A stretch of 64,000 nt of DNA from an uncultured Alphaproteobacteria bacterium (GTDB taxonomy: Bacteria; Pseudomonadota; Alphaproteobacteria; RF32; CAG-239): the NCBI GenBank assembly GCA_934271715.1, contig CAKQRZ010000009.1, forward strand, positions 9,613 to 73,612. Direction: 5' to 3'. A program made the translations under genes and the position numbers. Below the pieces are notes generated by a model, which had not been told where the DNA came from, ran no database searches, and saw only the letters and a list, made by a program, of their open reading frames with translations. Positions 7,301-62,425 of the stretch are shown one piece after another. Numbering within the stretch: position 1 is the stretch's first letter; every line of letters begins with the position of its first letter.

Positions 7301-8086
7301 CTAATTTTCTAATATATTTACTTTTTCAGAAGATATAATTCTGTAAAGTTTTATAGTATATGGTTTTGAAGCTATCGGTCCATGTAAATCAATTTCCAAA
7401 GCCGCTCTATATTTATCATTTTCAAAGACATAATAATCAGCAGATAATCTAAATCTCCAATCTTTTTTATATTTACCGTTTTCAATAACAATATCCGGTT
7501 TTTTATCCATAGTTTTATTGTGCCAAGCAACAAAACGATAAACTCCATCACTATCATATTTATCTGTTATATTATCAACCCGCATCAGCCAATCTTTGTA
7601 TTTAAATACTGAAATGTTGCTTTTGTAAGGTTTCAGTTTGGAATATAATTTTTCATTGCTTTCAGATTTTAAAATTTGAACTTCGTCAGAAATAAGCGGT
7701 TCATAAACTGAAAATGTGTAATTTCCCTCTTTGTCATCTTCTCTTAAAATATAGTGTTGATTATTATAAATTGCTTCGTAATAATAAAGATTATATTTTT
7801 CCTCATCATGTATATCATAATCATAAAATTTTGTTGTTTTGGTTAAAATATCTGGTTTGTCAGACATATTTTTACCATTTTCCCAAAGAGCTAGTCTATC
7901 GTGAAAATATGGGTCTGCTTCAGCCTCAAGTCCTTCCATATTATCTATACGCCCAAAGTGGGTCGGAGTTTGAAAAATTAACTCATTGTGATGATATGGC
8001 AGCAAAGCCGGATAAAGTTCTTCTTTAGCTGCAGCGTTGTGGTTAAAACATATAAATGCAATGAGAATTATCAGTAATTTTTTCAT
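7301..8086 (-). CDS. Hypothetical secreted protein
   Basis: Signal peptide MKKLLIILIAFICFNHNAAA; AT-rich; no recognisable domain. Confidence 0.45.
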   Translation of the reverse strand: MKKLLIILIAFICFNHNAAAKEELYPALLPYHHNELIFQTPTHFGRIDNMEGLEAEADPYFHDRLALWENGKNMSDKPDILTKTTKFYDYDIHDEEKYNLYYYEAIYNNQHYILREDDKEGNYTFSVYEPLISDEVQILKSESNEKLYSKLKPYKSNISVFKYKDWLMRVDNITDKYDSDGVYRFVAWHNKTMDKKPDIVIENGKYKKDWRFRLSADYYVFENDKYRAALEIDLHGPIASKPYTIKLYRIISSEKVNILEN

Positions 8087-8261
8087 TGTAATCTCCAGAT
8101 TTTTTTTTATGAGTTTAGCAAGTCTGACAGTAAATGCAAGATATTCTTATAAAAAATTATAGTTTTAGTTGACGCAATGACAAATATATATTATCAATTT
8201 AAAAAATGAGGGAAAAATGAAATATATTTTAGTAATGCTTAGCTTTTATTTAGAACTGTAA

Positions 8262-8290
8262 ATAGATATCCTCCAGTAGGCTGGAGGATA
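8262..8290. terminator. Hairpin terminator downstream of the pilin gene at 8295
   Basis: gatatcctccagtaggctggaggatatc is a 12-bp perfect stem placed immediately after the minus-strand stop. Confidence 0.5.
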
Positions 8291-8294
8291 TCTG

Positions 8295-8948
8295 CTAAAA
8301 TCTTATGCCGATATTGCATTCTCCGTCTAAACCATCGCAAAATTTGCACATCGCCTGAAAATCTGAAAGTGTGGACGAGGCTATACATTTTCGGTCTTTC
8401 GTACCGCAATATTTAGCGCCGTAACGGGTTGTTCCAGACCAATCATTTGCTGAATTAGCAACAGTAACGCGGAATAGCTCCGAACTTAGCGGCAAGGCGA
8501 GGTTATTCAATAATTCCGTGCATAGCTTAACCGAAAAGTTTACGCTTACCGACGCACCGCTTTCATTTTTAGTGGTTCCGCCTAAATACATATCAAAAGA
8601 TAGGAGTTCGCCGTTCAAAAGATAGGCAGCTACGTTATTTCCCTGAGAATCCTTATACCATATCTTGCTTTGTTTAACCCAGCTCTCTGGCACCATATTC
8701 ATTGCCGCCATAGTATCTGCGAGAAATACCTGATTTTGCGGATTAGAACGTAACAGATTGTCTTTATGCTCCAGCAGCTGAAAAATAACATTGCTGTATT
8801 CTTCCACCAATTTATTAACTTTAAACTTCTCCATAGCCTTGGAGTAACCGGCGATACCACCGACACTTAACACACCGATAATCGCCAGCACTCCCAGCAT
8901 TTCTATCATGCTGCGGCCAAAGGAATTTGCGCCTCTAGCACCCGTCAT
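8295..8948 (-). CDS. Type IV pilin-like protein with Cys-rich C-terminus (paralogue 1)
   Basis: MTGARGANSFG|RSMIEMLGVLAIIGVLSVGGIAGYSKAMEKFK prepilin-type N-terminus; C-terminal CKFCDGLDGECNIGIRF. The ORF stays open in frame upstream to 9395 through the GC-rich modules. Confidence 0.75.
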   Translation of the reverse strand: MTGARGANSFGRSMIEMLGVLAIIGVLSVGGIAGYSKAMEKFKVNKLVEEYSNVIFQLLEHKDNLLRSNPQNQVFLADTMAAMNMVPESWVKQSKIWYKDSQGNNVAAYLLNGELLSFDMYLGGTTKNESGASVSVNFSVKLCTELLNNLALPLSSELFRVTVANSANDWSGTTRYGAKYCGTKDRKCIASSTLSDFQAMCKFCDGLDGECNIGIRF

Positions 8949-9440
8949 ACTAGGCCCTGTGCCTAGTATCTTGTGGCACCAAGGGCGTGGCAATCCAGAA
9001 CCCTCGCCCCGTGAGGGAGAGGGGGACGCCTTGGCGTCGGGTGAGTGGTACTTAAAGAACGAGCAAAAGGCACTAGACAAGCGTTCCCGGCACCAGCCTG
9101 AAACGTCATACTTGTTGCCACACCCCACAGGCTGTGGCAGACGAGTATCCATGACTTTGTTGCTGTAAGCAACGCTTTTTTGTTTACTTGCCACCAGAGA
9201 GAACCCGCGTCCCCGGCACCAGTCATTCTTGGGTTTATCCCAAGAATCTTCTCTCAATAGGCACTTATTTAATAAGGCTAATTTATTGACTAGGTTAGAT
9301 ACTTGTTGCCAGAAGATTCTAGGCACAGGGCCTAGAATGACTGGTGCTAGGGACGCTAGCTTAGTGTTTGTTGTGGTGTTTGTGTTACCCCTCACCCGGA
9401 GCGCTGCTCCGACCTCTCCCTCAAGGGGCGAGGCTGTCAG
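8949..9440. repeat. GC-rich palindromic leader modules (modules C1, D, C2), with an inverted second C1+D copy at 9297-9440
   Basis: ctaggccctgtgcctag hairpin, gacgccttggcgtc palindrome, ccctcgccccgtgagggagaggg hairpin, and the block encoding MDTRLPQPVGCGNKYDVSG. 8935-8990 and 9297-9356 are about 85% identical in inverted orientation. Confidence 0.7.
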
Positions 9441-9490
9441 TTTGCTTCTGTGCGTGTTATTTCTGAATATATCATTTTTTCTGCCAAACC

Positions 9491-9660
9491 CTGCAAAAAC
9501 GTGCTTGACGGCAGAAAAAGCGTCTTTAATCAGATGTTCAGGATTTGCAGAGAGAGAGAGAGAGACCTTTGCTTAGCTTATTTTTCATCTTTCTTTCCTC
9601 ATTTTTAAGTTAATTTACATTTTTATTCTATGCCAGCCATATTCCCTATGTCAACCGGAA
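9491..9660 (-). promoter_or_regulatory. Class A pilin leader: sigma70-like promoter, RBS and uORF with a (CT)n tract
   Basis: Minus-sense TTGACA-N17-CATAGAAT, then gaggaaagaaagATG; uORF MKNKLSKGLSLSLCKS* contains the 17-nt tc run (plus 9549-9565). This is followed by a ctgcaaa/tttgcag inverted repeat. Confidence 0.6.
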
Positions 9661-9676
9661 AATGAATTAGCATATT

Positions 9677-10336
9677 TTAAAAATCTATAGTAACAGAACA
9701 CACTTCTTTTTTTGAACAAAGTTCACAGTTGTCATGTATTTCGCTGATACTAATGTTATTTAAACACTTTCGTCCTGCAGAACAATTTTTATCGCCATAA
9801 AAAATTGATGAATTTCCAGCAGATCTAAAAAAAAGTAATAGTTCTAAGGAAGAATGTAAGGGCTTAACCACATTACTGACAAGTTCGGTACAAAATTTAG
9901 TGGAAAAATTTTCGGTTATCCATGAACTTTCATCAGGAAATTGTGAACCACCTAAGACAAAATCAAAACGAAGATTTCCGTTTCTTGAATAAATAGCGAT
10001 AATATTGCTATATGGGTCTTCAAATAAATTTTCTTGTGTAGAATCTAAATTATTTGTTTTCATATTCCAAGTTGGCGGAACTAAATTTAAAGCGTTTGCT
10101 AGTTTTATAAGTGGAGTAGTTTTTCCGTCCACATATTTAGTGGAATATTTAAATTCATCTAGGTGTTCCAACATTCCATAAATTAAGTAGCTATATTCTT
10201 CAATCGCCTTATCAAGCTTAAATTTCTCCATAGCTTTGGAATATCCGGCTATTCCGGCAACGCTCAGTACGCCGATAATCGCCAGCACGCCGAGCATTTC
10301 AATCATGCTTCTCCCTTTTTCTAAATTCTTATACAT
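9677..10336 (-). CDS. Type IV pilin-like protein with Cys-rich C-terminus (paralogue 2)
   Basis: MYKNLEKG|RSMIEMLGVLAIIGVLSVAGIAGYSKAMEKFK; C-terminal CELCSKKEVCSVTIDF. GGAG RBS sits before MYKN. Confidence 0.8.
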   Translation of the reverse strand: MYKNLEKGRSMIEMLGVLAIIGVLSVAGIAGYSKAMEKFKLDKAIEEYSYLIYGMLEHLDEFKYSTKYVDGKTTPLIKLANALNLVPPTWNMKTNNLDSTQENLFEDPYSNIIAIYSRNGNLRFDFVLGGSQFPDESSWITENFSTKFCTELVSNVVKPLHSSLELLLFFRSAGNSSIFYGDKNCSAGRKCLNNISISEIHDNCELCSKKEVCSVTIDF

Positions 10337-10366
10337 ATTTCTAACTCCGTTTAATTTGTTGTACAT

Positions 10367-10570
10367 AAAACAAAACCCGCTACAAAAAGCGGGCGGATGT
10401 TCAGAAACCGTACGAAAACAAACGGCTCGGCTTATTCAGCTCATAGCCATATTCAGCCGACATCCGCCTAACAGACAGAAATCGGCATAACAAGTTTTAA
10501 GTCGCTATGCATAACGACTGTTTTCGTAAAGGGGTTCTGACGCCCTAGACAGACTATCGTCTATCCAAAA
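10367..10570 (-). promoter_or_regulatory. Class B pilin leader with intrinsic-terminator hairpin (putative attenuator or riboswitch)
   Basis: Conserved about 190 nt shared with 30788-31030, 47270-47464 and partly 42520-42746. Minus-sense ...catccgcccgctttttgtagcgggttttgtttt lies just 5' of the RBS. Confidence 0.55.
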
Positions 10571-10724
10571 ATTATTTTAACGGAATAATATGCGAAAGTA
10601 AAGGATTTTTATAATTAAGTAAAAACAAAGCATTATCAGGATATTGCTTTAAACAAAAAAAGACTTTCATTACAAATTGCTGTACACAATCTGTGATGAA
10701 AGTCTTTATTAAAGATACTTGGCG

Positions 10725-13263: not shown

Positions 13264-13424
13264 TGCTTTTCCTTTTTTTGTTTTATACTAATGATTTTTA
13301 CGGAAATAAATTTTTTGTGTCAAGAGTACATGAAATATAAAATTACATTTTTTCAATAGAAAAAGTGTAAATGATAGTGGAGATAAAGCAAAAGCCTCAC
13401 TTTGCAGCGAGGCTTTTTAGGTGT

Positions 13425-14192
13425 CTATTTAAGTTTATAGACTGTTATCTGACGAACTTTGAAACACTCAACCAACATACCGGGTTTGGCATTAGCCCAT
13501 TTAGGGTCATCATAAGTATGTAATCTGACTTTGTGACCGTTGGTAAAGGTTACATCAATAATGGAGATTGTAGCTCTGTCTTGCGTTTTATTATCTCGGA
13601 TTATTGTTTTGTTGATTTCAGATTGCGTATTAGCAGAATACCACTGAACCTTTTGAGCAATGCTTGGTTCTAAGTTTTTTTCAAATTGTTTTGATGTCCA
13701 ATTATTGCTTAAATGCACAGAATAAGCTTTATAAGCCGAAACCAATTTAACATCTTTAATTTTCAGAAGCTTTCTGTCTTTTTTATAAACAGGTTGAAGA
13801 ATTCTGCCATCAGAATAAAGCAGCATGTCTTTTCTATATAAACCTTCTTTATATTTATGAAAAATTGAACTGACTTTTTTTGCTGGGTAAACTTGCTCGA
13901 AATCAGTGGGCCAATGAATTGTAGTGATGATTACTTTTTTCAATTCACTGTCATATAGATAATTAGGTTGAGAGTAGCAGAATTCAAGCGAAGTTATAGC
14001 ATCTGATTTACAAATAACTCTTGAGGTGTACCAATCACGCATTGCATAACGCATACCTTTAACAAAGAAAGAGGATTTTTCATATAAGCTTTCTTTAACT
14101 TTTATATTATCCAGTCTATAGAACCTGATTTGAGCCGAAGCGTTAAAGTTAAACACAAAAGCCATCAAGATAACTAAAAATAATCTCATCAT
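13425..14192 (-). CDS. Hypothetical secreted protein (copy A of a tandem duplication)
   Basis: Signal peptide MMRLFLVILMAFVFNFNASAQIRFY...; the C-terminus ...VRQITVYKLK is shared with 14382-15158. Confidence 0.5.
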   Translation of the reverse strand: MMRLFLVILMAFVFNFNASAQIRFYRLDNIKVKESLYEKSSFFVKGMRYAMRDWYTSRVICKSDAITSLEFCYSQPNYLYDSELKKVIITTIHWPTDFEQVYPAKKVSSIFHKYKEGLYRKDMLLYSDGRILQPVYKKDRKLLKIKDVKLVSAYKAYSVHLSNNWTSKQFEKNLEPSIAQKVQWYSANTQSEINKTIIRDNKTQDRATISIIDVTFTNGHKVRLHTYDDPKWANAKPGMLVECFKVRQITVYKLK

Positions 14193-14381
14193 AATAAAAC
14201 CGGAATGTTTAAAGAGTCTTTGTTTGACCGGATACTCTGTATATAATAATAAATTGATAGACGTAATATAAAATATTTGAAAACTTTTGTCAATATTGTT
14301 TTGTCGGATTAAATCTACAACATAAAATATTTATGTTGTAAAGCAAAAAGCCTCACTATCATAGTGAGGCTTTTTAGGTGT

Positions 14382-15158
14382 CTATTTAAGTTTATAGACA
14401 GTTATCTGACGAACTTTGAAACGCTCAACAATCATACCAGGTTTGGCATTTTCCCATGCAGGTTTATTGTACCATTTGGGGTCATCATAGGTCTGAAGTT
14501 TTACTTTTTGACCATTTGTAAATGTCACTTCTATGACAGATATTTTTTTCTTTTCCTGAAAAACAACATCTGTCGCATTGTGCTTACCTTGTTTGTATTC
14601 TGCAGCCCAAGTTAAAGATTGTTCAGGTATCCAATGATAGATGTTTGCCATAAACTGAGCGTTAGTCCAATTTGTGCCTAGTGTTACTTTTTGAGAATTA
14701 TATTCAGAGCATAACTTTATTGATTTAATTTTCAAAAGCAGTCTGTACTGCTTGCTAATCATTTCAACGGTTGCGCCGTCAGAGTATAGTAATTGCCCTT
14801 TTGTATATGATCCATATGCCAGTGCAGCATTATAAGGAGTGTATGTTTGCATATATTCCATCGGAGGATTGGTGCATTTTGTCACTATACTTATTTTTTC
14901 TAAATATCCATCTCGTTTATAGTCTGCATCAATATAGGTTAAAGAGCCGGAGGAACAAAAATACTTTCCTTTATAGCTATGAGTTTCTGTTTTAGGAAGA
15001 AGCAACATGCTCTTTCCCATATAAACAATCCTTGTTCCTGTTGTCTCGTACGTCCTATCTTTAATTTGTATATTATCCAGACTATAGAATCTGATTTGAG
15101 CCGAAGCGTTATAATTAAACACAAAAGCCATCAAGATAACTAAAAATAATCTCATCAT
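14382..15158 (-). CDS. Hypothetical secreted protein (copy B of a tandem duplication)
   Basis: N- and C-termini identical to copy A with a divergent middle; the upstream 165 bp and the downstream terminator are duplicated exactly. Confidence 0.5.
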   Translation of the reverse strand: MMRLFLVILMAFVFNYNASAQIRFYSLDNIQIKDRTYETTGTRIVYMGKSMLLLPKTETHSYKGKYFCSSGSLTYIDADYKRDGYLEKISIVTKCTNPPMEYMQTYTPYNAALAYGSYTKGQLLYSDGATVEMISKQYRLLLKIKSIKLCSEYNSQKVTLGTNWTNAQFMANIYHWIPEQSLTWAAEYKQGKHNATDVVFQEKKKISVIEVTFTNGQKVKLQTYDDPKWYNKPAWENAKPGMIVERFKVRQITVYKLK

Positions 15159-15400
15159 AATAAAACCGGAATGTTTAAAGAGTCTTTGTTTGACCGGATA
15201 CTCTGTATATAATAATAAATTGATAGACGTAATATAAAATATTTGAAAACTTTTGTCAATATTGTTTTGTCGGATTAAATTTAAAAAACACTTGAATTTA
15301 AAATTTATTTGCGGTATAAAGCTTTTTGTCTGAGTTGTTCGGGCGAATTGGCATGCCTGACAGCTTGTTGTTTAATTCCAGTTTATTGAAAGGGAATAAA

Positions 15401-21671: not shown

Positions 21672-21718
21672 GAAAATTCATGTACTTCTGTGTATGCTAA
21701 AATTTTCTCTCTTAGTAT
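21672..21718. terminator. Hairpin terminator (agagagaaaatt...aattttctctct), copy 1
   Basis: 11-bp inverted repeat plus T-run; the same stem recurs at 22966-22998, flanking the pilin cassette. Confidence 0.5.
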
Positions 21719-22374
21719 CAAAATTCTAAAACTATGGCGCAGATTTTTTCTTCATCAATACAATAGTTGCAAATATCATTGATATCAGAAAGCGTAATTG
21801 AGCTTAAACATTTTGCGTTTGGATTATCCTTGCATGTGCTGTCTCCATAATATGCAGCACCGGATTTATATGTAAAAAAGATATGGTGTACGGCAGAATG
21901 CAGAGGCTGAACCAAATCAGTCATTAAACTTTGACAGAGTTTACCCGAAAAATTAGTATTGTGAGCAATATTGCCGTCTTCATCCAAAGCGCCGCCCAGA
22001 TACATGTCTATAACCAGCCGGTTGTTGCGTGAAAATAATTGAATAATATTGCCGTAAGGGTCATACATTCGGCGGAAGTTTATTTTTTTATAGCTATCCG
22101 GAACCAGATTTAAGCCAAAAGCAAAATCAATCAGTCCGGCAGATTCTATAAGGTTGGTATTTTCGCTGTTTAGTTTTTGTATATAGTCTAAGTTTTCCAA
22201 CAGTCCATAAATTAACATACTGTATTCATCCATAGCCTTATTGAGCTTAAATTTTTCCATAGCTTTGCTATATCCGGCAATGCCGCCGACACTTAAAACT
22301 CCTATAATCGCCAAAACGCCGAGCATTTCAATCATACTGCGGCCAAGCGGGTTTGTGCCTCTGCCACCAGTCAT
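21718..22374 (-). CDS. Type IV pilin-like protein with Cys-rich C-terminus (paralogue 3)
   Basis: MTGGRGTNPLG|RSMIEMLGVLAIIGVLSVGGIAGYSKAMEKFK; C-terminal CNYCIDEEKICAIVLEF. The ORF is open upstream to 22617 through modules C1, D and C2. Confidence 0.75.
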   Translation of the reverse strand: MTGGRGTNPLGRSMIEMLGVLAIIGVLSVGGIAGYSKAMEKFKLNKAMDEYSMLIYGLLENLDYIQKLNSENTNLIESAGLIDFAFGLNLVPDSYKKINFRRMYDPYGNIIQLFSRNNRLVIDMYLGGALDEDGNIAHNTNFSGKLCQSLMTDLVQPLHSAVHHIFFTYKSGAAYYGDSTCKDNPNAKCLSSITLSDINDICNYCIDEEKICAIVLEF

Positions 22375-22720
22375 CCTAGGCCGTGACGCACAGTCTGTAC
22401 CTAGGATCTTGTCGCACCAAGGGCGTGGCAATCCCTCTCCCCCTGCGGGAGAGAGTGACGCCTTGGCGTCGGGTGAGGGGTATTTAAAGGACTCGCAACA
22501 AGAATTAAATAGGCGCCTAAAGCCCAAACCCGAAACGTCATACTTGTCGCCACACCCTGCAGGCTGTGGCAGACGAGTATCCATGATTTTGTTGCCAACG
22601 GCAACGCATATTGACATTGCTTTAGCAATGGCGTTATGGATTCTCCGCCATGGTACTTCCGGCAGGGAGTACCGGCGAAGAATGACGCTGAGAGTGGAGG
22701 CGGAAAAGCGCGTGAACGTG
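22375..22720. repeat. GC-rich palindromic leader modules (C1, D, C2 and an extended C2)
   Basis: cctagg...cctagg hairpin, gacgccttggcgtc, ctctcccgcagggggagag, and the block encoding MDTRLPQPAGCGDKYDVSG. 22560-22700 is the reverse complement of 62470-62640. Confidence 0.7.
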
Positions 22721-22781
22721 CCGCCTGCTAGTTTAGTTCTTAATGCGTTATTTCTGAAAGTGTCATCTTTTCTGCCAAACC

Positions 22782-22960
22782 CTGCAAAAACGTGCTGAGC
22801 GGCAGAAAATATGCCTTTAATCAGATGTTTAGGATTTGCAGAGAGAGAGAGAGAGACCTTTGAATAGCTTATTTTTCATCTTTCTTTCCTCTTATTTTAG
22901 TTAATTACTATACTCATTCTATACCAGCCGCACTCCATAAGTCAACCGTAAAATCAAAAT
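22782..22960 (-). promoter_or_regulatory. Class A pilin leader (promoter, RBS, uORF with a 17-nt tc tract)
   Basis: Minus-sense TTGACT-N17-TATAGAAT; uORF MKNKLFKGLSLSLCKS*; run at 22840-22856. Confidence 0.6.
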
Positions 22961-29678: not shown

Positions 29679-29984
29679 ATGGTTTTAGGCGTGACAGACA
29701 AAGAACAGCGGATTATAGAAGATATTTTAGACGCTTATGCGGATAGTTATGCCTTTTATTACTATGGTTCGCGCGTAAAAGGCAATTTTGAAAAGACCTC
29801 TGATTTAGATGTTTTAATCAAAGGTCAAAAAGAAATGCCGCTGTTTATTTTAAGCGAGCTGAAAGAAAAATTTGACGCCAGCTATTTGCCGTACATTGTC
29901 AATTTTTCCGATTATCACAATATCACGCCTGATTTTTATGAGCATATCAAGCAAGATTTGGTTAATTACAAAGCAAATGCTTAA
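29679..29984 (+). CDS. Minimal nucleotidyltransferase (HI0073/MntA-like antitoxin)
   Basis: YYYGSRVKGNFEKTSDLDVLI matches the GS...DxD NTase motif; 101 aa. Confidence 0.65.
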   Translation: MVLGVTDKEQRIIEDILDAYADSYAFYYYGSRVKGNFEKTSDLDVLIKGQKEMPLFILSELKEKFDASYLPYIVNFSDYHNITPDFYEHIKQDLVNYKANA

Positions 29985-30787
29985 AACTCCAGAGTTACGG
30001 TACAGCTTTGCACGCCGCCTTCACAGCCGTTGCATTCATCGTTAATTTCGTCCAGAGTAATGTCGTTAAGGCATTTTTTGTCGCCGCCGCAATAGGCATC
30101 GCCGTAAAATTGCGTATTGTTGGCGCCGGATTTATAAATCCATGCATATTGCACGGCACTATGCAGCGGCTGAGCTAAATCGCTCATCAGGGCGCGGCAT
30201 AGCTTAACCGGAAAATAAGGTGTGAATCCGGTGCCATCATCATTATTTGTAAAACCGCCAATATGAAAATCCATAACCAAATTGCCGCCGCGGGAAAAAA
30301 CACTAACCATGTTGCCGTCAGAATCAATAAGCTGATTTATGGCGTTGTTGCTATGCCAATCGGCAGGAACTAAATTTGCCGCAAGCACATAGTCGCGCAG
30401 CCCGCATTCTTGCCAATTTGCTACCCAATCATTACATTTCAGCTTCTTAAATTCGTTTACATTTCCAATCATTCCCGCCACTAAATAGCTGTATTGTTCT
30501 ATAGTTTTGTTGATTTTAAACTTTTCCATCGCCTTTGAATAACCGGCAATCCCGCCAACCGATAATACTCCAATTATTGCCAGAACGCCTAGCATTTCAA
30601 TCATACTGCGGCCAAGCGGGTTTGTGCCTCTGCCACCAGTCATCCTAGGCCGTGACGCACAGTCTGTACCTAGGATCTTGTGGCACCAAGGGCGTGGCAA
30701 TCCAAAACCCTCGCCCCGTGAGGGAGAGGGTGCAGACTTGTCTGCGGGTGAGGGGTACTTAAAGACATTTTCAAATAATTTATACAT
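29981..30787 (-). CDS. Type IV pilin-like protein with Cys-rich C-terminus (paralogue 4); leader extended in frame by palindromic modules
   Basis: GGAGG RBS then MYKLFENVFKYPSPADKSAPSPSRGEGFGLPRPWCHKILGTDCASRPRMTGGRGTNPLG|RSMIEMLGVLAIIGVLSVGGIAGYSKAMEKFK; C-terminal CNGCEGGVQSCTVTLEF. Modules D and C1 (gcagacaagtctgc palindrome, cctagg hairpin) insert 150 nt in frame relative to paralogue 2. Confidence 0.7.
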   Translation of the reverse strand: MYKLFENVFKYPSPADKSAPSPSRGEGFGLPRPWCHKILGTDCASRPRMTGGRGTNPLGRSMIEMLGVLAIIGVLSVGGIAGYSKAMEKFKINKTIEQYSYLVAGMIGNVNEFKKLKCNDWVANWQECGLRDYVLAANLVPADWHSNNAINQLIDSDGNMVSVFSRGGNLVMDFHIGGFTNNDDGTGFTPYFPVKLCRALMSDLAQPLHSAVQYAWIYKSGANNTQFYGDAYCGGDKKCLNDITLDEINDECNGCEGGVQSCTVTLEF

Positions 30788-31030
30788 ATTTCTAACCTCC
30801 GTTTAATTTGTTGTATGCAAAACAAAACCCACCAAAATGGCGGGCGGATGTTGAGAAACCGTATATAACCAAACGGCTCGGCTTATTCAGCTCATAGCCA
30901 TATTCAGCCGACATCCGCTCAAGCGAAAATCGGCATAACAAATTTAAGTCGTTTATGCATAACGACTGGTTATATAAAGGGTTCTCACGCCCTAGACAGA
31001 CTATAGCCTATCCAACAATCATTTTAGCTA
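30788..31030 (-). promoter_or_regulatory. Class B pilin leader with terminator hairpin
   Basis: Minus-sense ...catccgcccgccattttggtgggttttgttttgca just before the RBS; 7-bp hairpin agtcgtt-atgcat-aacgact near the 5' end. Confidence 0.55.
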
Positions 31031-31176
31031 AAGATAATCTGAAAGTAAAGACATTTTTATTTCACAAAATCAAAAAATAAATACACTTTTTAAGATTTTT
31101 CTAAAAAAGTATTTAATTTATTGCAAAGACGAATTGTCTACCTCCAAGTTAATATATTGAAGAGGAATATAACATA

Positions 31177-32208
31177 TTATGAATTGGTATTATTTTCTTT
31201 CTGCAGCAATTTTTTTACCTCTTTATCAAAATCAGATTCTATATGCTGCGTTTTATTAAATATGTCATATTCCTTTTCGGCTTTGTCTTTGGCCTGTTTC
31301 TGCGAAATTTTTCCTTTATTTCCATCCGGCAGAATATCATACCGGCGAAATGCCAAAAACTCATTTACACTTTTGGCGAATTCCTGCATTGTAAAAGTGT
31401 TTTCACGTTCAATTAAATCTTCAATATAATCAAAATAGCCGGAAACAGTCCGTTCTAAACGTTTTATTTCTTTTTCTGACAGATAATTTTTAGCAACGGA
31501 TACGTCAGACTTTAATATTCTTCCGTCTGGAGAATTTTTCCAAGCCGTCAACCCCATATTATCTTTGGTGTGGTCGGCCTTGGTATAAATAATTTCTGCG
31601 GCGGTTTGACCGGTAATTGCGTAATGAAACTTATTTTGCACAGTAGCATAAAAATCTTGAGTTACCGGAGAGTACTTATCATAATCAATAGAGCATTCTG
31701 CAAAAATGTCTGTAATTTGCTGATAGATACGGCGTTCCGAGGCTCTGATTGAGCGAACCCGCTCCAGCAATTCGCGGAAATAATCTTGACCGAAAGCGGT
31801 TTTGCCTTGTTTCAATCTTTCATCATCCAATACAAAACCTTTTTGGATATATTCTTTTAAGATTTTTGTCGCCCAAATTCTGAAATGTGTAGCTTGGATG
31901 GAATTTACCCGATATCCGACAGAAATAATGGCATCAAGGTTGTAAAAATTAGTTTCTGAAGTTTGTGTTTTATTTGCAATAGCGCCGTGCTGAGTGGTTG
32001 TTTCCATTTTGGAAATAACCACTTGTTCATCTAATTCTTTTTCCTCAAATATATTTTTCAAATGCTTGCTGATAGCCGGTGTTTGCACACCAAACAATTC
32101 GGCCATTGCTTTTTGTGTCAGCCAAATTGTTTCATCTTTTATGACTGCATTTACTTTTATATCTTTATCAGGTGCGGAATAAACTAAAAAATTAAACTCT
32201 TTATTCAT
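31177..32208 (-). CDS. Virulence protein RhuM family (DNA-binding)
   Basis: FYNLDAIISVGYRVNSIQATHFRIWATKILKEY is the RhuM-family signature. Confidence 0.7.
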   Translation of the reverse strand: MNKEFNFLVYSAPDKDIKVNAVIKDETIWLTQKAMAELFGVQTPAISKHLKNIFEEKELDEQVVISKMETTTQHGAIANKTQTSETNFYNLDAIISVGYRVNSIQATHFRIWATKILKEYIQKGFVLDDERLKQGKTAFGQDYFRELLERVRSIRASERRIYQQITDIFAECSIDYDKYSPVTQDFYATVQNKFHYAITGQTAAEIIYTKADHTKDNMGLTAWKNSPDGRILKSDVSVAKNYLSEKEIKRLERTVSGYFDYIEDLIERENTFTMQEFAKSVNEFLAFRRYDILPDGNKGKISQKQAKDKAEKEYDIFNKTQHIESDFDKEVKKLLQKENNTNS

Positions 32209-32492
32209 TTGCTAACATCTCTATCTGCATTGTCTTATTTGCAAATAATTATAGAATTCAAATATTAAAATTAAGTTAGAAATATTTTTAAGTTATATTA
32301 TTTAAAAAATACATCTTTGTTGTCGCTGTGCTTTCGTTTGGCTTTCACTTGCGGTCGGACCCACGACATCAACCTTGGCAACCCAAAAAAAATCATCCTA
32401 AAGGTGGTGGCTATGGGCATTTTATCACGTTAATTTTACGGATATTGGCATATTTTCGCACATCGTAGACATTATCAACTTTGGTATAGGTT

Positions 32493-33326
32493 TTGGGGAT
32501 AGATTACGGAGTAAGCGATTTGAGTATAGAGAGGTGGTTTCAGCAAGGATATCGCCGCAAGAACAAGGAATACGGCGGAGCAAAATGTCCAATGGTGTTA
32601 GGGATAGATGAACATTATTTCAGCAAGAAAGGCGGCTATGCAACCACATTAGTAAATTTGAGCAAGCATAAGGTATTTGATGTTGTTTTAGGTCGTTCAG
32701 AACAAGATTTGGTAGGATATTTGAACCGTCTCAAAGGCAAGGATAAAGTACGAGTAGTTGTAATGGATTTAAGCTCTAATTACCGGAGTATTGTCAAAAA
32801 ATACTTTCCTAATGCAATGATAGTAAGTGACCGTTTCCACGTCATAAAATTGATATTAGAGAGTTTTATAAAAACGGCCTACAGTATAGATACAAACTTA
32901 AAGAAACAGTTTGGATTAGGACGATTATTGAGAAAAAATAAAGCCACTTTGAAAAACTGGCAAAAGTTAAAGATAGAAGCTTATCTTGAAACTCAATCTC
33001 AAATTAAGATACTGTATGAAATAACGCAGGATTTAATGAGCTTAATGAATGAAAAGATGTGCAAATATAAGGATTGTAAACAAAGATTGATACCGAAATT
33101 GCTTAAATACATAGAATTATTAAAGGATTGCGGCTTTGTATTATTTAGAAAATTAGGAAGAACGATAGAGAATTGGCAAGAAGAAATTGGAAGAATGTTC
33201 AGATTTACCAGAAGTAATGGGATAACAGAGGGATTTCATAGAAAGATGAAACTAATCCAACGACGAGCGTATGGTTTTAGAAATTTTGAAAATTATCGAT
33301 TGCGAATTATAGTTTTATGTGCTTAA
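32493..33326 (+). mobile_element. ISL3-family transposase, N-terminally truncated fragment
   Basis: ...VLGIDEHYF...SDRFHVIK...SNGITEGFHRKMKLIQRRAYGFRNFENYRLRIIVLC is the ISL3 catalytic C-terminus. The N-terminal Zn-finger/HTH is absent and no terminal inverted repeats were found. Confidence 0.65.
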
Positions 33327-33482
33327 CTTATTTATGATGAAAAACAAACGAATTGATGGAATGATTTTTTTTATAACTTTTTTACTCTGCCCCCAACTTT
33401 GACGATGAACCACGATGAACCGAGTTCAAATCTCCGGCTATCCTATAACAAAAAAGCCCTCAAAAGAGGACTTTTTTTGTTA

Positions 33483-33559
33483 TGGTAGCGAGGGGGAGAT
33501 TCGAACTCTCGACACATGGATTATGATTCCACCGCTCTAACCAACTGAGCTACCCCGCC
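33483..33559 (-). tRNA. tRNA-Met (anticodon CAT)
   Basis: Reverse complement is ggcggggtagctcagttggttagagcggtggaatCATaatcca...gagttcgaatctcccctcgctacca: cloverleaf with CAT anticodon, T-loop GTTCGAATC and encoded CCA. Confidence 0.8.
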
Positions 33560-42329: not shown

Positions 42330-42746
42330 TATTACTACAAAATAACATTTAAATCAATTTATTTTTATAGCTTTATACAGCCTAACTAATTATCAATAAG
42401 CTGCCACACGACGTCAAAAAAACTGTAAAATATGCGGAACCAGCCTCCTCCATAAGTTAATTACTAAGACAATGTGCTGTAATAAGAAAAACATCTTTAC
42501 TTTCCGATTATCTTTAGCTAAAATAGATGTTGGATAGGCGATAGTCTGTCTGGGGTGTCGTAGCCTCTTATTCATGCGTCTATATGACGTTAAATATCTT
42601 CTAGCTTTATAGCTGGAAGGTAGCAAAATATGCCATATTCGCAATGGTTAATATGCTGCACTATAATCATGAATAATAGTTACGAACTTCCAGCTGTCTC
42701 GCCGACAGCTTTTTTGTTACACGAAAAATAATGAAAGGAAGTTACG

Positions 42747-43397
42747 ATGAAACAAAATCAATTAGGCAGAAGTATGATAGAAATGCTCGGCGTACTGGCA
42801 ATAATTGCAGTTTTAAGCGTCGGCGGGATTGCCGGATATTCTAAAGCCATGCTGATGTGGCATTCAAATAAGCAGAAAGACTTACTGGCAACGCTTATCA
42901 ATAATGCTATCACGCTTAAACCCAATTTATCTACTTTGAGGGAAAATCGTTCGCAGACTATTACTGATGTTTTTATTGCGATGGGCGGTGTACCGGAGGG
43001 TTTTACCTATCAAAACAATGTGATATATGATGCCGATAATAATTCAATCAGCATAACTTACGGGATTGAGTATGATAGGCAAAGAGATGATTCTTTGGTA
43101 AAAGTATTTAAATATGCTATCAGAATCAGCGCTATTGAGGGAACAGGCAAGCTTTCCATATCTATGAAAGAGTATTGCAAAAATTTGATTATGGCTGCTC
43201 AGTCAGCGCCGAATGAAGTTCTGTCTGTAGATTTTTCCAGCATAGATTCTGATTCTTGGTCAGGCACCAGCGGAGCTTTGATTTTTAACCGCAGCACCCG
43301 AGGGCAGACCTCTCCGGCGCAGATAAATGAACGCTGCAATATAGCCATTAAAGAAAACGGGCGAGGTTACTTTAGAATTTTGCTGAATCCAAATTAA
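42747..43397 (+). CDS. Type IV pilin-like protein (divergent paralogue 5, no Cys-rich C-terminus)
   Basis: MKQNQLG|RSMIEMLGVLAIIAVLSVGGIAGYSKAM. Preceded by a partial class B leader box (ggataggcgatagtctgtctgggg) and a terminator hairpin cagctgtctcgccgacagcttttttg. Confidence 0.75.
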   Translation: MKQNQLGRSMIEMLGVLAIIAVLSVGGIAGYSKAMLMWHSNKQKDLLATLINNAITLKPNLSTLRENRSQTITDVFIAMGGVPEGFTYQNNVIYDADNNSISITYGIEYDRQRDDSLVKVFKYAIRISAIEGTGKLSISMKEYCKNLIMAAQSAPNEVLSVDFSSIDSDSWSGTSGALIFNRSTRGQTSPAQINERCNIAIKENGRGYFRILLNPN

Positions 43398-46676: not shown

Positions 46677-47269
46677 GTACTAAAAATGATATGAATAATA
46701 ACATATCAGCAAATATATAATTTATCTGCTTAAAGGAAGCGAATAGGGAAAATCGGGAATTTTCAAGAGCTATGAACAAATTGTGAGCTGTTTTAATGAA
46801 ACAGCCTGCAAAGGTCGGGGAGTTCGCAAATCATAATTCAGATTGATTTCTTACACCTTTAAAAGCATTAGAACCGATTAACACTTTTTGTACATACATG
46901 TAAGACTCCCCGCTGTTGGAGATATATTCCTGCAAGAGGAACTAACAAGCTTTCTGAATTATTAACTTGCGACAGTTAAGCGGCATATTTCATACCGCAG
47001 AATAAAGCTTTTATGAAGCGGAATATATAATATATTATTGCATAATGCAATATATTTTTTTAAAACCTGACAAAAAGTCTAATATAAAATGTAAAAGATG
47101 TAGTTTAATATTATATTATTCTAAATAAAGTAGAATATGCGGAAAATAGTAAATAAGCAGCAAAAAATAATTATTTTATAAAATCATTTGACTCGCGCCA
47201 AAAAATTATATAGCCTTATTTATAGATATGGAAAACCATATTCAGGGCGTCGAAAACCCTTTTACTAAA

Positions 47270-47464
47270 TTGAATAGTCGCTTTTGAGCATAAGCGACTT
47301 AAAATCGTGTATGCCGACTTCTGTTCTAAGGGACGGATGTCGGTGAATAAGGCTATATGCTGAATAAGCCGAGCCGTTTTTTTATTCAATTTAGTGACGG
47401 TTTTCGAACATCCGCCCGCTTTTTACGGCGGGTTTTGTTTTTTATATAACAAAATTAAACGGAG
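47270..47464 (+). promoter_or_regulatory. Class B pilin leader with terminator hairpin (plus-strand copy)
   Basis: agtcgcttttgagcataagcgact hairpin ... catccgcccgctttttacggcgggttttgtttttt, then aaacggagttggaaaatATG. Confidence 0.55.
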
Positions 47465-47473
47465 TTGGAAAAT

Positions 47474-48100
47474 ATGTATAAAAATTTTGAAAAAGGCCGT
47501 TCCATGATAGAAATGCTGGGCGTGCTGGCGATTATTGGAGTGCTGAGTGTCGGCGGAATTGCAGGTTACTCCAAGGCTATGGAGATGTGGAAGCTGAACA
47601 AGGCAAATGAAGAATACAGCTACTTAATCCAAGGGCTGATAGAGCAAAAAGACAATATCATGGCGAATAATGTAACCGGAGGCTTGGCTGCGGTTGTTAC
47701 CGCGCTTCATCTGGTGCCGGAAACATGGAAAGATGCTGTCGGAACCGTTAACAACGCCACCTTAAGCGACCCGCAGGGAAATTTAATAAACGTATTTGTC
47801 CGAGAAAAGAGGATTGTTGTTGATTTTTATTTAGGCGGATTAGTTGGTAATGAGCTAAGAACCTCTCTCAGCTTTTCTAAAAAATTCTGTATGTCTTTAA
47901 TGCAAAACACGGTGCAGCCATTGGCTCCGGCTTTATATTATTCACGTCTCGCTCATATTTGGGATGCTCAGCATATCTATTACGGCAGCAAATTCTGTGG
48001 AGCAGGGCGGACTTGCCTGAAAGATTTGACGCTGCCGGAAATAAAAGAAATATGCGACAGCTGCACCGGCATCAGATGCGCAATCGTTTTGGAATTTTAA
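47474..48100 (+). CDS. Type IV pilin-like protein with Cys-rich C-terminus (paralogue 6)
   Basis: MYKNFEKG|RSMIEMLGVLAIIGVLSVGGIAGYSKAMEMWK; C-terminal CDSCTGIRCAIVLEF. Confidence 0.8.
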   Translation: MYKNFEKGRSMIEMLGVLAIIGVLSVGGIAGYSKAMEMWKLNKANEEYSYLIQGLIEQKDNIMANNVTGGLAAVVTALHLVPETWKDAVGTVNNATLSDPQGNLINVFVREKRIVVDFYLGGLVGNELRTSLSFSKKFCMSLMQNTVQPLAPALYYSRLAHIWDAQHIYYGSKFCGAGRTCLKDLTLPEIKEICDSCTGIRCAIVLEF

Positions 48101-54787: not shown

Positions 54788-54882
54788 ACTCCGCCCGGTA
54801 TAACCCTCTCCCTCAAGGGGCGAGGTTGTAGGTTTTGTTCTGTGCGTATTATTTCCGAATGTGTGATTTTTTACGCTGAACT

Positions 54883-55050
54883 CTGCAAAAACGTGCTGAG
54901 CGGCAGAAAATATGCCTTTAATCAGATGTTTAGGATTTGCAGAGAGAGAGAGAGAGACCTTTGCTTAGTTTATTTTTCATCTTTCTTTCCTCTAAAATTA
55001 TGTTGTTTACGTACCAATTCTATAACAGACGTTTAACTAAAGTCAACAGG
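54883..55050 (-). promoter_or_regulatory. Class A pilin leader (promoter, RBS, uORF with a 17-nt tc tract)
   Basis: Minus-sense TTGACT-N17-TATAGAAT, then gaggaaagaaagATG; uORF MKNKLSKGLSLSLCKS* (plus 54930-54980); tract at 54941-54957. Confidence 0.6.
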
Positions 55051-61870: not shown

Positions 61871-62037
61871 GTACCTCCAATGTACACTAGGATTTTTTTC
61901 GCAGCTAGAAACCACTTTATCTACACCGCTCTCCGCAGTTTTGAAGAATTTTGCGGCGCATTGACGCACGGCATCCAAAGTCTTAAATGCGATGTTGGTT
62001 AGGTTAATTTCTTGTTTGCTGATTTTTTCAAAAAACT

Positions 62038-62407: not shown

Positions 62408-62425
62408 ATAATAGGAGGAATAAGA

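Follow-up and report, generated by a model that had tools for sequence, protein, structure and literature searches.

The 64-kb stretch of DNA analysed here (64,000 nt, hereafter the window) carries a family of type IV pilin-like genes in which a short, cleavable leader appears to have been expanded by an array of GC-rich hairpin modules that are read in frame with the pilin. We consider it probable, on the evidence of the sequence, that these genes encode phase-variable prepilins with mosaic hairpin leaders of ~55–320 residues, which would be tolerated as cytoplasmic peptide that is cleaved off and which would be diversified by recombination and deletion.

A dispersed family of pilin-like preproteins

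Eight paralogous type-IV-pilin-like genes lie within the window, all with the invariant cleavage site G|RSMIEML. Five of the eight have GC-rich hairpin modules between the start codon and the cleavage site, and one unrelated Cys-rich secreted protein likewise has hairpin modules between its start codon and signal sequence. The genes belong to an uncultured lineage of Alphaproteobacteria that is present in human and animal gut metagenomes, with at least 8 of them in the 64 kb analysed here and at least 25 in a single MAG. The paralogues with short leaders begin MYKNLEKG|RSMIEML (9677–10336, minus strand), MKQNQLG|RSMIEML (42747–43397, plus strand) and MYKNFEKG|RSMIEML (47474–48100, plus strand). 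The first of these, whose leader had been pointed out in the initial annotation of this DNA and is indeed present with its ATG at 10336, represents the module-free reference state.

Gly occupies position −1 in 138 of 138 N-termini, with Glu at +5 followed by a hydrophobic stretch, and the +1 residue is Arg in 131 of the 138, rather than Phe or Met. The mature N-termini, G|RSMIEMLGVLAIIGVLSVGGIAGY, align with invariant L16, G17, V18, A20 and I21. Scores against TIGR02532 (15.2, 14.7 and 15.8 bits; cutoff 16.3) fall just below threshold, and a Pfam search of the eight paralogues gave no match at E ≤ 0.01. An AF2 model of the 9677–10336 paralogue (pLDDT 82) has a 45-residue N-terminal helix (residues 13–57) and beta-sheet strands, and the one PDB entry that it matches with high probability is the type IVb pilin PilS (3fhu_A; probability 0.99, E = 0.016, TM 0.40/0.55). 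No prepilin peptidase gene was found in the window. Scanning all the retrieved DNA for the catalytic motif, a crude and weak test, also gave nothing.

Prepilin leaders are 6–26 aa long, cytoplasmic and cleaved after Gly(−1) (PMC4471445). The present family shares with class III signal peptides the Gly at −1, the Glu at +5, the ~20-residue hydrophobic α1-N and, in the short-leader paralogues, leaders of 6–8 residues; it differs in predicted leaders of ~55–320 rather than 6–26 residues, in Arg at +1 and in HMM scores just under threshold. The best explanation of these features is a large, dispersed group of type-IV-pilin-like preproteins with predicted class III signal peptides.

Module-bearing loci in the window

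Gene A (8295–8918, minus strand) runs from the Gly(−1) codon (8916–8918) through a mature protein of 206 aa beginning RSMIEMLGVLAIIGVLS to a stop codon, and has an orthologue in locus L073 with ~95% DNA identity. Its predicted translated leader (8919–9548, minus strand) comprises 210 codons without a stop between a (CT)n tract and Gly(−1), in the order start-peptide, Dinv, C1inv, n, C1b, C2, W, D, C1, where inv denotes inverted copies; the other two sense frames contain 12 and 19 stops. The frame at 8295 had been described as open for about 180 codons; it is in fact open for 218. Starting from the tract, the modules, all on the minus strand, include inverted D (9385–9440, encoding ASPLEGEVGAALRVRG); inverted C1 (9297–9356, encoding LAPVILGPVPRIFWQQ; fold z = −4.05); C1b (9207–9257, encoding EDSWDKPKNDWCRGRG), a C1 paralogue in which the AGAT/ATGAC flanks are kept and the stem is compensatorily changed (TCTTGGG/CCCAAGA); C2 (9090–9163, encoding NKVMDTRLPQPVGCGNKYDVSG), a long imperfect palindrome; D (8997–9050, encoding HSPDAKASPSPSRGEG), which forms two hairpins, a 14-nt perfect palindrome GACGCCAAGGCGTC and then CCCTCTCCC-loop-GGGCGAGGG; and C1 (8929–8990, encoding RPWCHKILGTGPSMTGARG), a hairpin with a 7–9-bp stem between AGAT and ATGAC flanks (−34.1 kcal/mol, z = −3.6) and stem covariation. 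Upstream lie a (CT)8 tract (9549–9564, minus strand; (AG)8 on the plus strand) and a start cassette (9565–9654, minus strand) consisting of a sigma-70-like promoter, TTGACA-18-TAGAAT (9654–9625; 11/12 promoter matches), the SD GAGGAAAG and an ATG at 9588 encoding MKNKLSKG. This ATG is out of frame with the leader; n = 6 or 9 would restore the frame. The cassette is conserved in four window copies.

The other four module-bearing pilin-like genes are also on the minus strand, and their coordinates likewise run from the Gly(−1) codon to the stop. Gene B (21718–22344) is preceded by a leader and start cassette (22345–22879) with the order Y, C2, W, D, C1, in which an open frame of 177 codons extends as far as (CT)8 at 22840–22855, with the ATG at 22879. 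The leader of gene C (29981–30613) has no (CT)n tract: MYKLFENVF, D, C1 and G (30614–30787) are in frame with an SD-ATG at 30787, which bears out the read-through MYKLFENVF-[D+C1]-G|RSMIEML proposed earlier. Gene D (54155–54796) has a leader and start cassette (54797–54980) open for 56 codons, with inverted D at 54803–54835, (CT)8 at 54941–54956 and the ATG at 54980. Gene E (61202–61810) has 104 open codons in its leader and start cassette (61811–62133), with F/f modules, (CT)7 at 62096–62109 and the ATG at 62133; the F/f modules hold an internal GGAGG-tac-ATG start (MNFLRQRK..., module f). The leader of the Cys-rich secreted protein (62425–62715, plus strand) consists of MLKSMNFLRGKSR, Y, C2 and a W-like module, in frame with a Sec-type signal peptide, MSILAFICLFATAAEA|KICF. 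A start at 62426 reading into this signal peptide had been proposed, and a start at 62425 is indeed in frame through Y-C2. Homologues of this protein carry other module subsets (P0129, P0136, P0145, P0151, L054 and L070).

Copies of the modules were found in all the places listed in the initial annotation. Besides the gene A copies, C1 occurs at 22358–22428 and 30625–30697, D at ~22433–22480, at 30705–30760 and, inverted, in the gene D leader, and C2 at 22527–22595 and 62591–62664. A longer Y-C2 unit is 93% identical between 22527–22690 and 62496–62659. The modules are imperfect palindromes of 45–105 nt with terminal inverted arms, and their GC content of 51–68%, in a window of 40.8%, agrees roughly with the ~60% given before. 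A sensitive blastn search of all leader regions against the whole window returned zero copies beyond the six leader regions, and Rfam 15 at gathering score identified only two tRNAs in the window and no family for the modules. Across the wider set of loci, module copies are restricted to the N-terminal leaders of the two families, pilin-like and Cys-rich; more than 90% lie inside ORFs with the frame preserved, and in 824 kb of DNA the other intergenic sequence is essentially free of them, a few D-like copies 3′ of genes (L074, L027) apart. A 17-mer scan of 596 Gb of genome contigs gave 82 matches in 81 loci, a pattern too short for a collection of that size; by a downstream-sequence filter 54 of the 82 are chance matches in unrelated phyla and 28 are real.

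The long leaders are open in the pilin frame

In the five window leaders the pilin frame contains 0 stops in 217, 176, 57, 55 and 103 codons, and the other sense frames contain 2–19. The same holds for a larger set of 94 long leaders, drawn from the window and from related assemblies: the pilin frame has 0 stops in ~11,900 codons, compared with 5.0 and 8.1 stops per 100 codons for the remaining two sense frames. In 46 metagenomic leaders it has none in 6108 codons, and the other frames have 327 and 517. The claim that the modules are read in frame is therefore upheld by these counts. When C2 copies were collected by a DNA-only search, 22 of 28 continued without interruption into G|RSMIEML and 2 more into the Cys-rich protein, and all eight MYK-type leaders with inserts (8/8) are in frame with the MYK ATG. 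On these sequence statistics, the long leaders appear to be translated from one of three start cassettes, and selection keeps every subset of modules in frame and free of stops. The predicted leaders of ~55–320 residues, compared with 7–8 residues in the short-leader paralogues, are a stretch of up to ~40-fold, and the peptides that they would contain include RPWCHKILGTGPSMTGAR and DTRLPQPAGCGDK.

We also considered whether this DNA might be an untranslated 5′ UTR, with initiation at an internal ATG or at Met+3 and a frame kept open by GC composition. GC-rich sequence does have fewer stops, and one antisense frame of the leaders is also stop-poor, at 1.6 per 100 codons. The complete absence of stops from the pilin frame over so many codons, set against the other two sense frames, nevertheless argues the other way, as do the invariant Gly(−1), the continuity of the leader frame, in every case, with an SD-ATG or a (CT)n tract and the lack of any in-frame ATG, GTG or TTG in several leaders (e.g., 54797–54940). 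An untranslated leader is thus very improbable. Some modules, such as module f, do contain internal SD-ATG starts, so that expression of these loci may be possible also while the (CT)n tract is in the OFF frame.

Every one of the 94 long leaders carries a net positive charge. In the same DNA, however, K+R outnumber D+E whichever of the six frames is read, which makes the charge an effect of composition rather than evidence of peptide selection, and selection at the peptide level for a basic leader was rejected.

Modules follow one common order

Among 96 leaders we distinguished 61 architectures, all of which are presence/absence subsets of one common order, S-X-Dinv-C1inv-n-(C1b or Y)-C2-W-D-E-C1-E-F-f-Q. 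Only modules E and H change place. The modules had been described as shuffled, which these 96 colinear leaders do not support, and the colinear order argues against the independent insertion of each module.

Sense and inverted copies number 42:0 for C2, 19:0 for Y and 30:0 for the W/D junction. These counts bear on the suggestion that the DNA between inverted C1 copies inverts, as an invertible switch that would flip the ~318-bp segment within the gene A leader. The arms themselves are much as reported (~310 bp apart): 8929–8983 and 9302–9356, each 55 nt long and separated by 318 nt, show 87% complementarity. The enclosed segment is never inverted (0/42 for the core), no recombinase or invertase gene lies near the loci, and the arms are merely two copies of one palindromic element family. 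We regard an invertible switch as extremely improbable, and with no enclosed module inverted in any counted copy, an inverton or shufflon was rejected.

Selection on the hairpins

The inner helix of the C1 family is 98.8% paired, in four pairs both partners have changed in a compensatory manner, and none of 500 shuffles scores as high. The pairing is almost purely Watson–Crick, with G-U in ~3 of 405 cells. Covariation had been proposed from a short palindrome that reads gacgccaaggcgtc in some copies and gcagacaagtctgc in another, and that observation is confirmed and extends to five different self-complementary stems. The fold energies of C1, C1inv and Y lie well below those of shuffled controls (z −3.6 to −4.5). 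The earlier proposal of selection at the nucleic-acid level is accordingly sustained, with the clearest figures from the C1 family, whose stems are kept paired.

Codon positions are consistent with this picture. The test was run on modules extracted by their DNA; extraction by peptide regular expression is biased by construction. An excess of change at third codon positions is absent in D, C2, C1b and Y, and in C1 it coincides with the covarying stem positions. Elements of the D family occur in three different reading frames or orientations. The sequence thus supports selection on the hairpins rather than on the leader peptide. Divergence among modules is 0.08–0.19 per site, compared with 0.47 at third codon positions of the conserved mature N-terminus, which suggests that the modules are homogenised. 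With stems selected at the nucleic-acid level and modules in frame, the two likenesses suggested before, a structured, translated leader and in-frame palindromes of the RPE type, are both fair descriptions. An antisense G-quadruplex in module D, by analogy with Neisseria pilE, was rejected: the four G3 runs occur only in 30722–30755, and the copies at ~9012 and 22440 lack them.

A (CT)n tract sets the frame at the start codon

The (CT)n frame switch had gone unnoticed in the initial annotation. Four window loci begin with a promoter, an SD, an ATG and a (CT)n tract (9549–9564, 22840–22855, 54941–54956 and 62096–62109), the tract lying 24 nt downstream of a strong SD-ATG; promoter and SD are conserved. 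About one third to one half of loci carry this promoter-SD-ATG-MKNKLSKG-(CT)n cassette. A tract of n = 6 places the ATG in the pilin frame (ON), and one of n = 7 or 8 leads to a stop after 18 or 16 codons, respectively (OFF). All four window copies are now out of frame. Among 70 complete tracts n is 6, 7 and 8 in 5, 47 and 17, respectively, and 64 of 69 tracts of length 6–8 elsewhere are in the OFF frame. The n = 6 loci have complete MKNKL.KGLSLSANP... pilin ORFs.

Tract length differs between otherwise nearly identical loci: L111 (n = 7) and L150 (n = 8) are 99.7% identical over 1500 nt, L115 (n = 8) and L206 (n = 7) share 99.4% identity, and n = 8 in the window corresponds to n = 7 in other assemblies of the neighbouring region (L005–L009). 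The polymorphism of the tract and its consequences for the frame are plain from these comparisons, and we infer that the tract switches within the population. Each paralogue with this cassette would therefore be switched independently, presumably by slipped-strand mispairing as at the CTCTT repeats of Neisseria opa genes.

Explanations of the module array

The model that we favour begins with a class III leader of 7–8 residues that would have grown to ~55–320 in many paralogues. The extra residues would be the colinear GC-rich hairpin modules, of which each locus retains a different subset. Such a leader may be tolerated since it would remain on the cytoplasmic side and be removed after the invariant Gly(−1), leaving its peptide almost free to vary, and the same tolerance may extend to the Cys-rich protein, in which the modules lengthen the n-region of its Sec signal peptide. 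The hairpins themselves would be palindromic repeats of the REP/RPE kind, maintained at the level of the nucleic acid. The modules of paralogues would be kept alike by ectopic recombination or gene conversion, and the many colinear architectures would arise when related direct copies (C1b/C1, E/E, D/H) undergo deletion or duplication between them. Tolerance of a passenger does not explain the compensatory stem changes or the near absence of modules from ordinary intergenic DNA. If each module were an autonomous MITE- or RPE-like element, of which only in-frame, stop-free insertions survive, one would understand the palindromes with terminal inverted arms, the several positions of E and H, the D-like copies 3′ of genes, the presence of the same modules ahead of two unrelated protein families and a similarity among modules far exceeding that of synonymous sites in the carrier paralogues; RPEs are a precedent for in-frame palindromes (PMC10969869). 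Random insertion, however, would not be expected to conserve order across 61 architectures, C2, Y, F and W/D are never inverted, and intergenic DNA should not be so empty. No target-site duplications were recognised at the junctions examined, no transposase or RAYT gene lies near the loci and the sole transposase in the window is of ISL3 type (32493–33326), with none of the Y1/RAYT type. Independent mobile insertion is, on balance, quite unlikely.

Two further readings assign the array a function. The hairpin RNAs might couple the translational state set by (CT)n to pilin expression as an attenuation-like amplifier: in the OFF state the untranslated leader would fold, blocking internal initiation or triggering termination or decay, and in the ON state ribosomes would melt the hairpins. 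The compensatory changes that maintain stems, the low fold energies and the position of the modules directly downstream of a frame-switching start are in keeping with such a leader, as is a C1 stem that partly covers an in-frame ATG that would give the canonical short leader MTGGRGANSFG|RSM, and the leader peptide of S. gallolyticus pil1, with GCAGA repeats and a stem-loop terminator, offers a precedent (PMC3894217). Against this stand the lack of any universal module, with many paralogues having none; the occurrence of modules behind starts that are not phase-variable (MYK, MLKSMNF) and in a non-pilin gene; and the failure to find a convincing hairpin plus U-tract intrinsic terminator on the sense strand of the leaders. 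C1 and D, moreover, occur in both orientations with almost pure Watson–Crick pairing, which a DNA-level palindrome fits at least as well as RNA. A structured regulatory leader is on the whole unlikely. The modules might instead be recombination substrates, serving as portable homology or as hairpin/cruciform hot spots at which start cassettes are exchanged among pilin bodies, giving combinatorial variation in expression. Three different start cassettes are followed by the same colinear series, which stands ahead of two protein families; 22345–22434 and 30614–30703 are 98.9% identical where the adjoining pilin sequences are ~80% identical; orthologous pilins have different leader subsets (window 8918 and L073; window 22344 and L026); and assemblies break inside modules. 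No recombination event was caught, however, each paralogue has its own start, so that exchange is unneeded for expression, and repeats might leave such a pattern as a passive side effect; we consider this function unlikely. It is possible, and we put it forward only tentatively, that the leaders form a new class of class III signal peptides, 55–320-residue mosaics that are made and then cut by prepilin peptidase. A second, equally tentative reading is that the hairpin array is functional and acts as an RNA sharpener of ON/OFF states or as a DNA recombination scaffold that reassorts start cassettes and pilin bodies.

Comparison with known systems

Neisseria opa genes carry CTCTT repeats within the region coding for the leader peptide (PMC3745409). 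Both systems comprise a dispersed multigene family of surface proteins with one promoter per copy and most copies OFF, and in both a pyrimidine-rich tandem repeat just after the start codon sets the frame by its length. The present repeat is a (CT)6–8 dinucleotide instead of a pentamer, the protein is pilin-like instead of a beta-barrel, up to ~300 leader codons follow the tract, and switching is deduced from sequence. With pil1 of S. gallolyticus the likeness is that a short tandem repeat alters how far ribosomes get through the structured leader that precedes a pilus gene (PMC3894217). There the leader peptide has a small ORF of its own, and the effect is exerted by a defined terminator hairpin (PMC3894217); here leader and pilin share one continuous frame, and no terminator is apparent.

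RPEs are small palindromic repeats within ORFs, in frame and free of stops (Ogata et al. 2000; reviewed in PMC10969869). The host in both cases is alphaproteobacterial, and stop-free in-frame palindromes add peptide without evident function. RPEs are ~100–150 bp long and scattered inside the mature proteins of many unrelated housekeeping genes; the units described here, which we liken to them by description, measure 45–105 nt and form an ordered array only in the disposable N-terminal leaders of two families of secreted proteins. Other palindromic repeats (REP/BIME, Correia and MITE-like) also are GC-rich imperfect palindromes in clustered mosaics that keep structure over sequence, and the few copies 3′ of genes strengthen the likeness to REP-type elements. 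These are extragenic by definition, in contrast to the copies described here, which lie overwhelmingly within ORFs. MITEs share the small size and terminal inverted repeats and differ in the target-site duplications, none of which was recognised here, and in the colinearity of the 96 leaders. In the literature on long prepilin leaders and on pilin families of gut RF32-type Alphaproteobacteria we found no description of such an arrangement.

If our reading is correct, this is a clear natural case of palindromic repeat DNA accumulating in one part of the coding sequence, the cytoplasm-facing, cleaved leader, where almost any peptide would be harmless, and it would extend the selfish-DNA idea of RPEs with a simple topological explanation. 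Predicted prepilin leaders 10–40 times longer than any described would also challenge ideas of substrate recognition by prepilin peptidase. The sequences suggest a repertoire resembling that of opa, in which pilin-like surface proteins can be switched independently, with a bearing on colonisation and immune evasion; should the array be functional together with the (CT)n switch, it would constitute a previously undescribed system of surface variation in a common uncultured gut lineage. On the practical side, the repeats break short-read assemblies and lead to inconsistent N-termini from gene callers for thousands of database proteins.

Pilin-like genes in the window

The window, from an uncultured gut alphaproteobacterium, has a GC content of 40.8%, and eight paralogous genes of ~210 codons are dispersed among its housekeeping genes (mnmA, pheS/pheT, proS, PFOR, rpsD and ABC-F ATPases). 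All eight products contain G|RSMIEMLGVLAIIGVLSVGGIAGYSKAMEK, in which the bar marks the predicted cleavage site. On the minus strand the Gly codons lie at 8918, 10315, 22344, 30613, 54796 and 61810, and the two plus-strand ones at 42765 and 47495. The motif is spaced as in a class III signal peptide (PMC4471445): position −1 is Gly, position +5 is Glu and a hydrophobic stretch is present, with the caveat that the +1 residue is Arg. TIGR02532 scores are 15.2–15.8 bits, below the cutoff of 16.3. An AlphaFold model of a paralogue (pLDDT 82) consists of a 45-residue N-terminal helix on a β-sheet, and in the PDB only the type IVb pilin PilS matches it with high probability (0.99, E = 0.016). Based on the motif spacing, scores, model and PilS match, we describe the paralogues as type-IV-pilin-like, a name that stops short of full family membership. 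The best protein hits come from MAGs and carry the label Alphaproteobacteria bacterium; NCBI names one of them 'type II secretion system GspH family protein'. The window contains no prepilin peptidase gene, and a crude catalytic-motif scan of the related DNA, which is a weak test, did not reveal one either.

Two other regions of the window merit mention. Tandem paralogous genes without a Pfam match (13425–14192 and 14382–15158, within 13406–15286) share repeat segments that are 89–96% identical. Beside pilin locus C, a RhuM-family gene (31177–32208) and an ISL3-family transposase (32493–33326) adjoin tRNA-Met (33483–33559), and this region (31177–33559) is possibly a small mobile island.

Open leaders behind defined starts

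In a sensitive blastn search of six leader regions against the whole window, copies of the hairpin modules were limited to those regions: 8919–9548 (gene A), 22345–22839 (gene B), 30614–30787 (gene C), 54797–54940 (gene D) and 61811–62095 (gene E), all on the minus strand, and 62425–62712 (+), which precedes a Cys-rich protein. The repeats lie where the initial annotation had placed them, and individual modules have a GC content of 51–68%. Its claim that they are read in frame holds at all five pilin loci, where the pilin frame runs without a stop from the start region to the cleavage site (217, 176, 57, 55 and 103 codons) and the remaining two sense frames contain 2–19 stops. The start at 62425 does read via modules Y and C2 into the Sec-type signal peptide of the Cys-rich repeat protein. 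This large secreted protein (62425 to beyond 64000, +), with the repeat unit C..GYT.GL..C.E..GY...Y..NGY.G...CGKC.YT, continues past the window end; the MLKSMNF start cassette and the leader modules are common to it and the pilin-like genes.

Four of the window loci are headed by a conserved start cassette that the initial annotation had not noticed. It comprises a near-consensus promoter, TTGACA-18-TAGAAT (9654–9625 in gene A, −), the SD sequence GAGGAAAG, ATG AAA AAT AAG CTA AGC AAA GGT, a (CT)n tract and the conserved peptide ANPKHLIKG.FSA..VFA.F. The tract is the exact upstream limit of the long open frame. It is (CT)8 at 9549–9564, 22840–22855 and 54941–54956 and (CT)7 at 62096–62109 (all −), each of which leaves the ATG out of the pilin frame, and n = 6 brings the ATG into frame; two database homologues (P0007 and P0044) start MKNKLSKGLSLSANPK... 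and then run into the pilin. Out-of-frame tracts account for 4 of 4 in the window and 64 of 69 of length 6–8 elsewhere. Tract length differs between loci that are otherwise nearly identical downstream (L111 and L150, 99.7% over 1500 nt; L115 and L206, 99.4% over 358 nt), and at the locus adjoining the P0001 pilin n is 8 in the window versus 7 in five other assemblies. As read from these alleles, the frame in the (CT)n class is set by a tract that varies between near-identical copies, and it is by such polymorphism, together with its effect on frame, that phase variation through simple sequence repeats is defined at the sequence level. The tracts would switch reversibly within populations. The closest parallel is Neisseria opa, each gene of which has a CTCTT repeat in its leader-peptide region (PMC3745409).

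The same openness is found in related assemblies. A GTDB genome scan for exact matches to a C2 17-mer, a pattern too short for 596 Gb and so returning mostly chance hits, contained 28 real C2 copies, 26 of them in a single MAG (CAVKTH01); 22 of the 28 read uninterrupted into G|RSMIEML and two more into the Cys-rich protein. Scanning metagenome contigs with a start-cassette 21-mer gave 79 cassettes, with n = 6 in 5 loci, 7 in 47, 8 in 17 and 4 in 1. Downstream sequence is sufficient in 48 loci, and in 46 of them the frame leaving the tract is open to G|RSMIEML across 54–303 codons, with 0 stops in 6108 codons versus 327 and 517 in the other frames. Pooling 94 long leaders gives 0 stops in ~11,900 codons, compared with 5.0 and 8.1 per 100 codons in the other sense frames. 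Judged by these counts, leader and pilin form one uninterrupted ORF, which connects to defined SD-ATG starts.

Among all 140 pilin N-termini, 49 (CT)n loci are out of frame and 4 in frame, 25 have MYK starts (17 with plain 8-residue leaders and 8 whose inserts bring the leader to 36–81 residues, in frame in every case) and about a dozen have MLKSMNF or MFKGIEFF starts; the remainder have short canonical leaders or reach a contig end. Only two loci, L050 (1–610) and L132 (about 7900–8330), have long leaders with a broken frame; those of the Y-C2 modules in L132 sit in a different frame that is likewise open (74 codons). The break may reflect a recent frameshift, a pseudogenized locus or an error of assembly. 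As a caveat, some modules hold internal SD-ATG starts. In module f of gene E, GGAGG-tac-ATG (61860–61880, −) predicts a basic leader of normal length, MNFLRQRKTALDAPLYAVSAG|RSM, and resembles the MLKSMNFLRGK cassette, as if a newer upstream cassette had buried an older start.

MYK-type starts are preceded by a conserved non-coding region of ~250 nt (10320–10620, −; 30790–31060, −; 47250–47470, +; partial copy at 42484–42571) with conserved stems and, directly before the SD, a terminator-like GCCCGC-loop-GCGGGT followed by TTTTGTTTT. The region resembles a cis-regulatory RNA or an attenuator; its sole Rfam signal, sRNA-Xcc1 (RF02221) at 10383–10469 (−), is sub-threshold (28.8 bits versus a gathering score of 53, E = 0.0044).

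Selection on hairpins rather than peptide

The module hairpins are clearly more stable than those of shuffled controls (C1, z = −3.6; inverted C1, z = −4.05; Y, z = −4.5). In 45 distinct C1-family copies, gathered by their conserved AGAT and ATGAC flanks only, 98.8% of cells in the inner 9-bp helix are paired. Four pairs have double compensatory changes, including pair 21–27 (CG 22, UA 11, GC 7, AU 4), and the observed covariation score was matched by none of 500 shuffles. The 14-nt palindrome of the D family occurs in five different self-complementary versions. Palindrome covariation, suggested initially from a single example, is thus confirmed and extended, and by this measure the hairpins are maintained by compensatory change.

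Variation in D, C2, C1b and Y is even across codon positions, unlike the conserved mature N-terminus with its strong third-position excess, and the excess in C1 falls on covarying stem positions. The frame or orientation in which D-family elements are read takes three forms (PSPDAKASPSPSRGEG, TPHSALSRHSLPQGARE and SPLEGEVGAALRVRG). On these patterns, the constraint is on nucleic-acid structure, and all that is required of the peptide is an open frame. Because inner-helix pairs are nearly all Watson–Crick and both C1 and D are found in both orientations, a DNA-level palindrome fits no less well than an RNA structure. The antisense strand of the gene A leader has a terminator-like hairpin (9158–9174, +) followed by CTTTTTTGTT, and stops are also scarce (1.6 per 100 codons) in one of the antisense leader frames; palindromy is the probable source of both features.

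Module order and proposed origin of the mosaics

Typing 96 distinct long leaders with simple peptide markers for 16 module types gave 61 architectures, which all keep practically the same order: S, X, Dinv, C1inv, n, (C1b or Y), C2, W, D, E, C1, E, F, f, Q, G|RSM (inv, inverted). Only modules E and H change position, and the modules are not shuffled as had been proposed. Neither is the suggested DNA inversion borne out: 118 leaders contain not one inverted copy of C2, Y, F, n or the W/D junction, which argues against an invertible switch enclosing them. The conserved order and the never-inverted modules also argue against independent insertion of each module.

Paralogues diverge much less in the modules (0.08–0.19 per site) than in the conserved pilin N-terminus next to them, where third codon positions differ by 0.47. 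Module subsets differ between orthologous pilins of related strains (window 8918 and L073; window 22344 and L026), and one and the same ordered series stands behind three different start cassettes and in front of two unrelated protein families. The mosaics would be generated by recombination, most economically by ectopic recombination or gene conversion between leaders, which would preserve order and frame, with added deletion or duplication between related direct copies. C1b and C1 have flanks alike through ATGACNGGTGC...TTC, and E/E and D/H are other related pairs. Selection would then purge frame-breaking products.

Confinement to leaders and possible function

Few copies lie outside intact leaders in 824 kb of related DNA, and these are contig-end fragments, two degenerate arrays (L059 and L064) and a small number of D-like hairpins that follow the 3′ ends of genes (L074 and L027). 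With the leader alone as protein query, the matches were confined to pilin-like proteins, truncated fragments and the Cys-rich KICFLPDG protein. When a Sec signal peptide is removed, its n-region goes with it. Prepilin leaders are cut at the cytoplasmic face, behind Gly(−1) (PMC4471445), and the long leaders would be cleaved likewise by prepilin peptidase. In both families the N-terminal segment thus stays cytoplasmic and is then removed, which offers a simple reason why modules are tolerated there. Tolerance does not by itself explain their near absence from ordinary intergenic DNA, which suggests that modules spread through homologous exchange from leader to leader, or that they have a function. 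A regulatory role for the hairpins, as in the attenuation-like pil1 system of S. gallolyticus (PMC3894217), is plausible but made less likely by three facts: no module is universal, modules also lie behind non-switching starts and a sense-strand terminator is not visible in the leader.

The components are individually of known kinds: in-frame palindromic repeats of the RPE type (PMC10969869), coding-repeat phase variation of the opa type and class III signal peptides. We found no description of their combination in the literature searched. Its distinctive features are an ordered array of hairpin repeats, confinement of the array to a disposable leader, a dinucleotide frame switch heading it and predicted prepilin leaders that reach 10–40 times the known maximum of 26 residues.

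Assemblies and labels

All results rest on short-read assemblies, often broken inside these repeats, and contig ends very often fall inside the start cassette or module C2 (L006–L013; many of L015–L089 and L095–L212). Homologue lengths are 201–399 aa for a mature protein of ~210 aa, with N-termini placed inconsistently by gene callers; the leader repeats both fragment assemblies and cause the inconsistent calls. The MAG that supplied L015–L089 (GenBank CAVKTH01) is labelled 'Bacteroidaceae bacterium H07656-L1_cleanbin_000006', almost certainly wrongly, because it is ~92% identical to the alphaproteobacterial window across 16 kb of syntenic DNA and has at least 25 of these pilin loci. L037 was placed in a '[Ruminococcus] gnavus' bin and seems to be a misbinned contig from the window's lineage.
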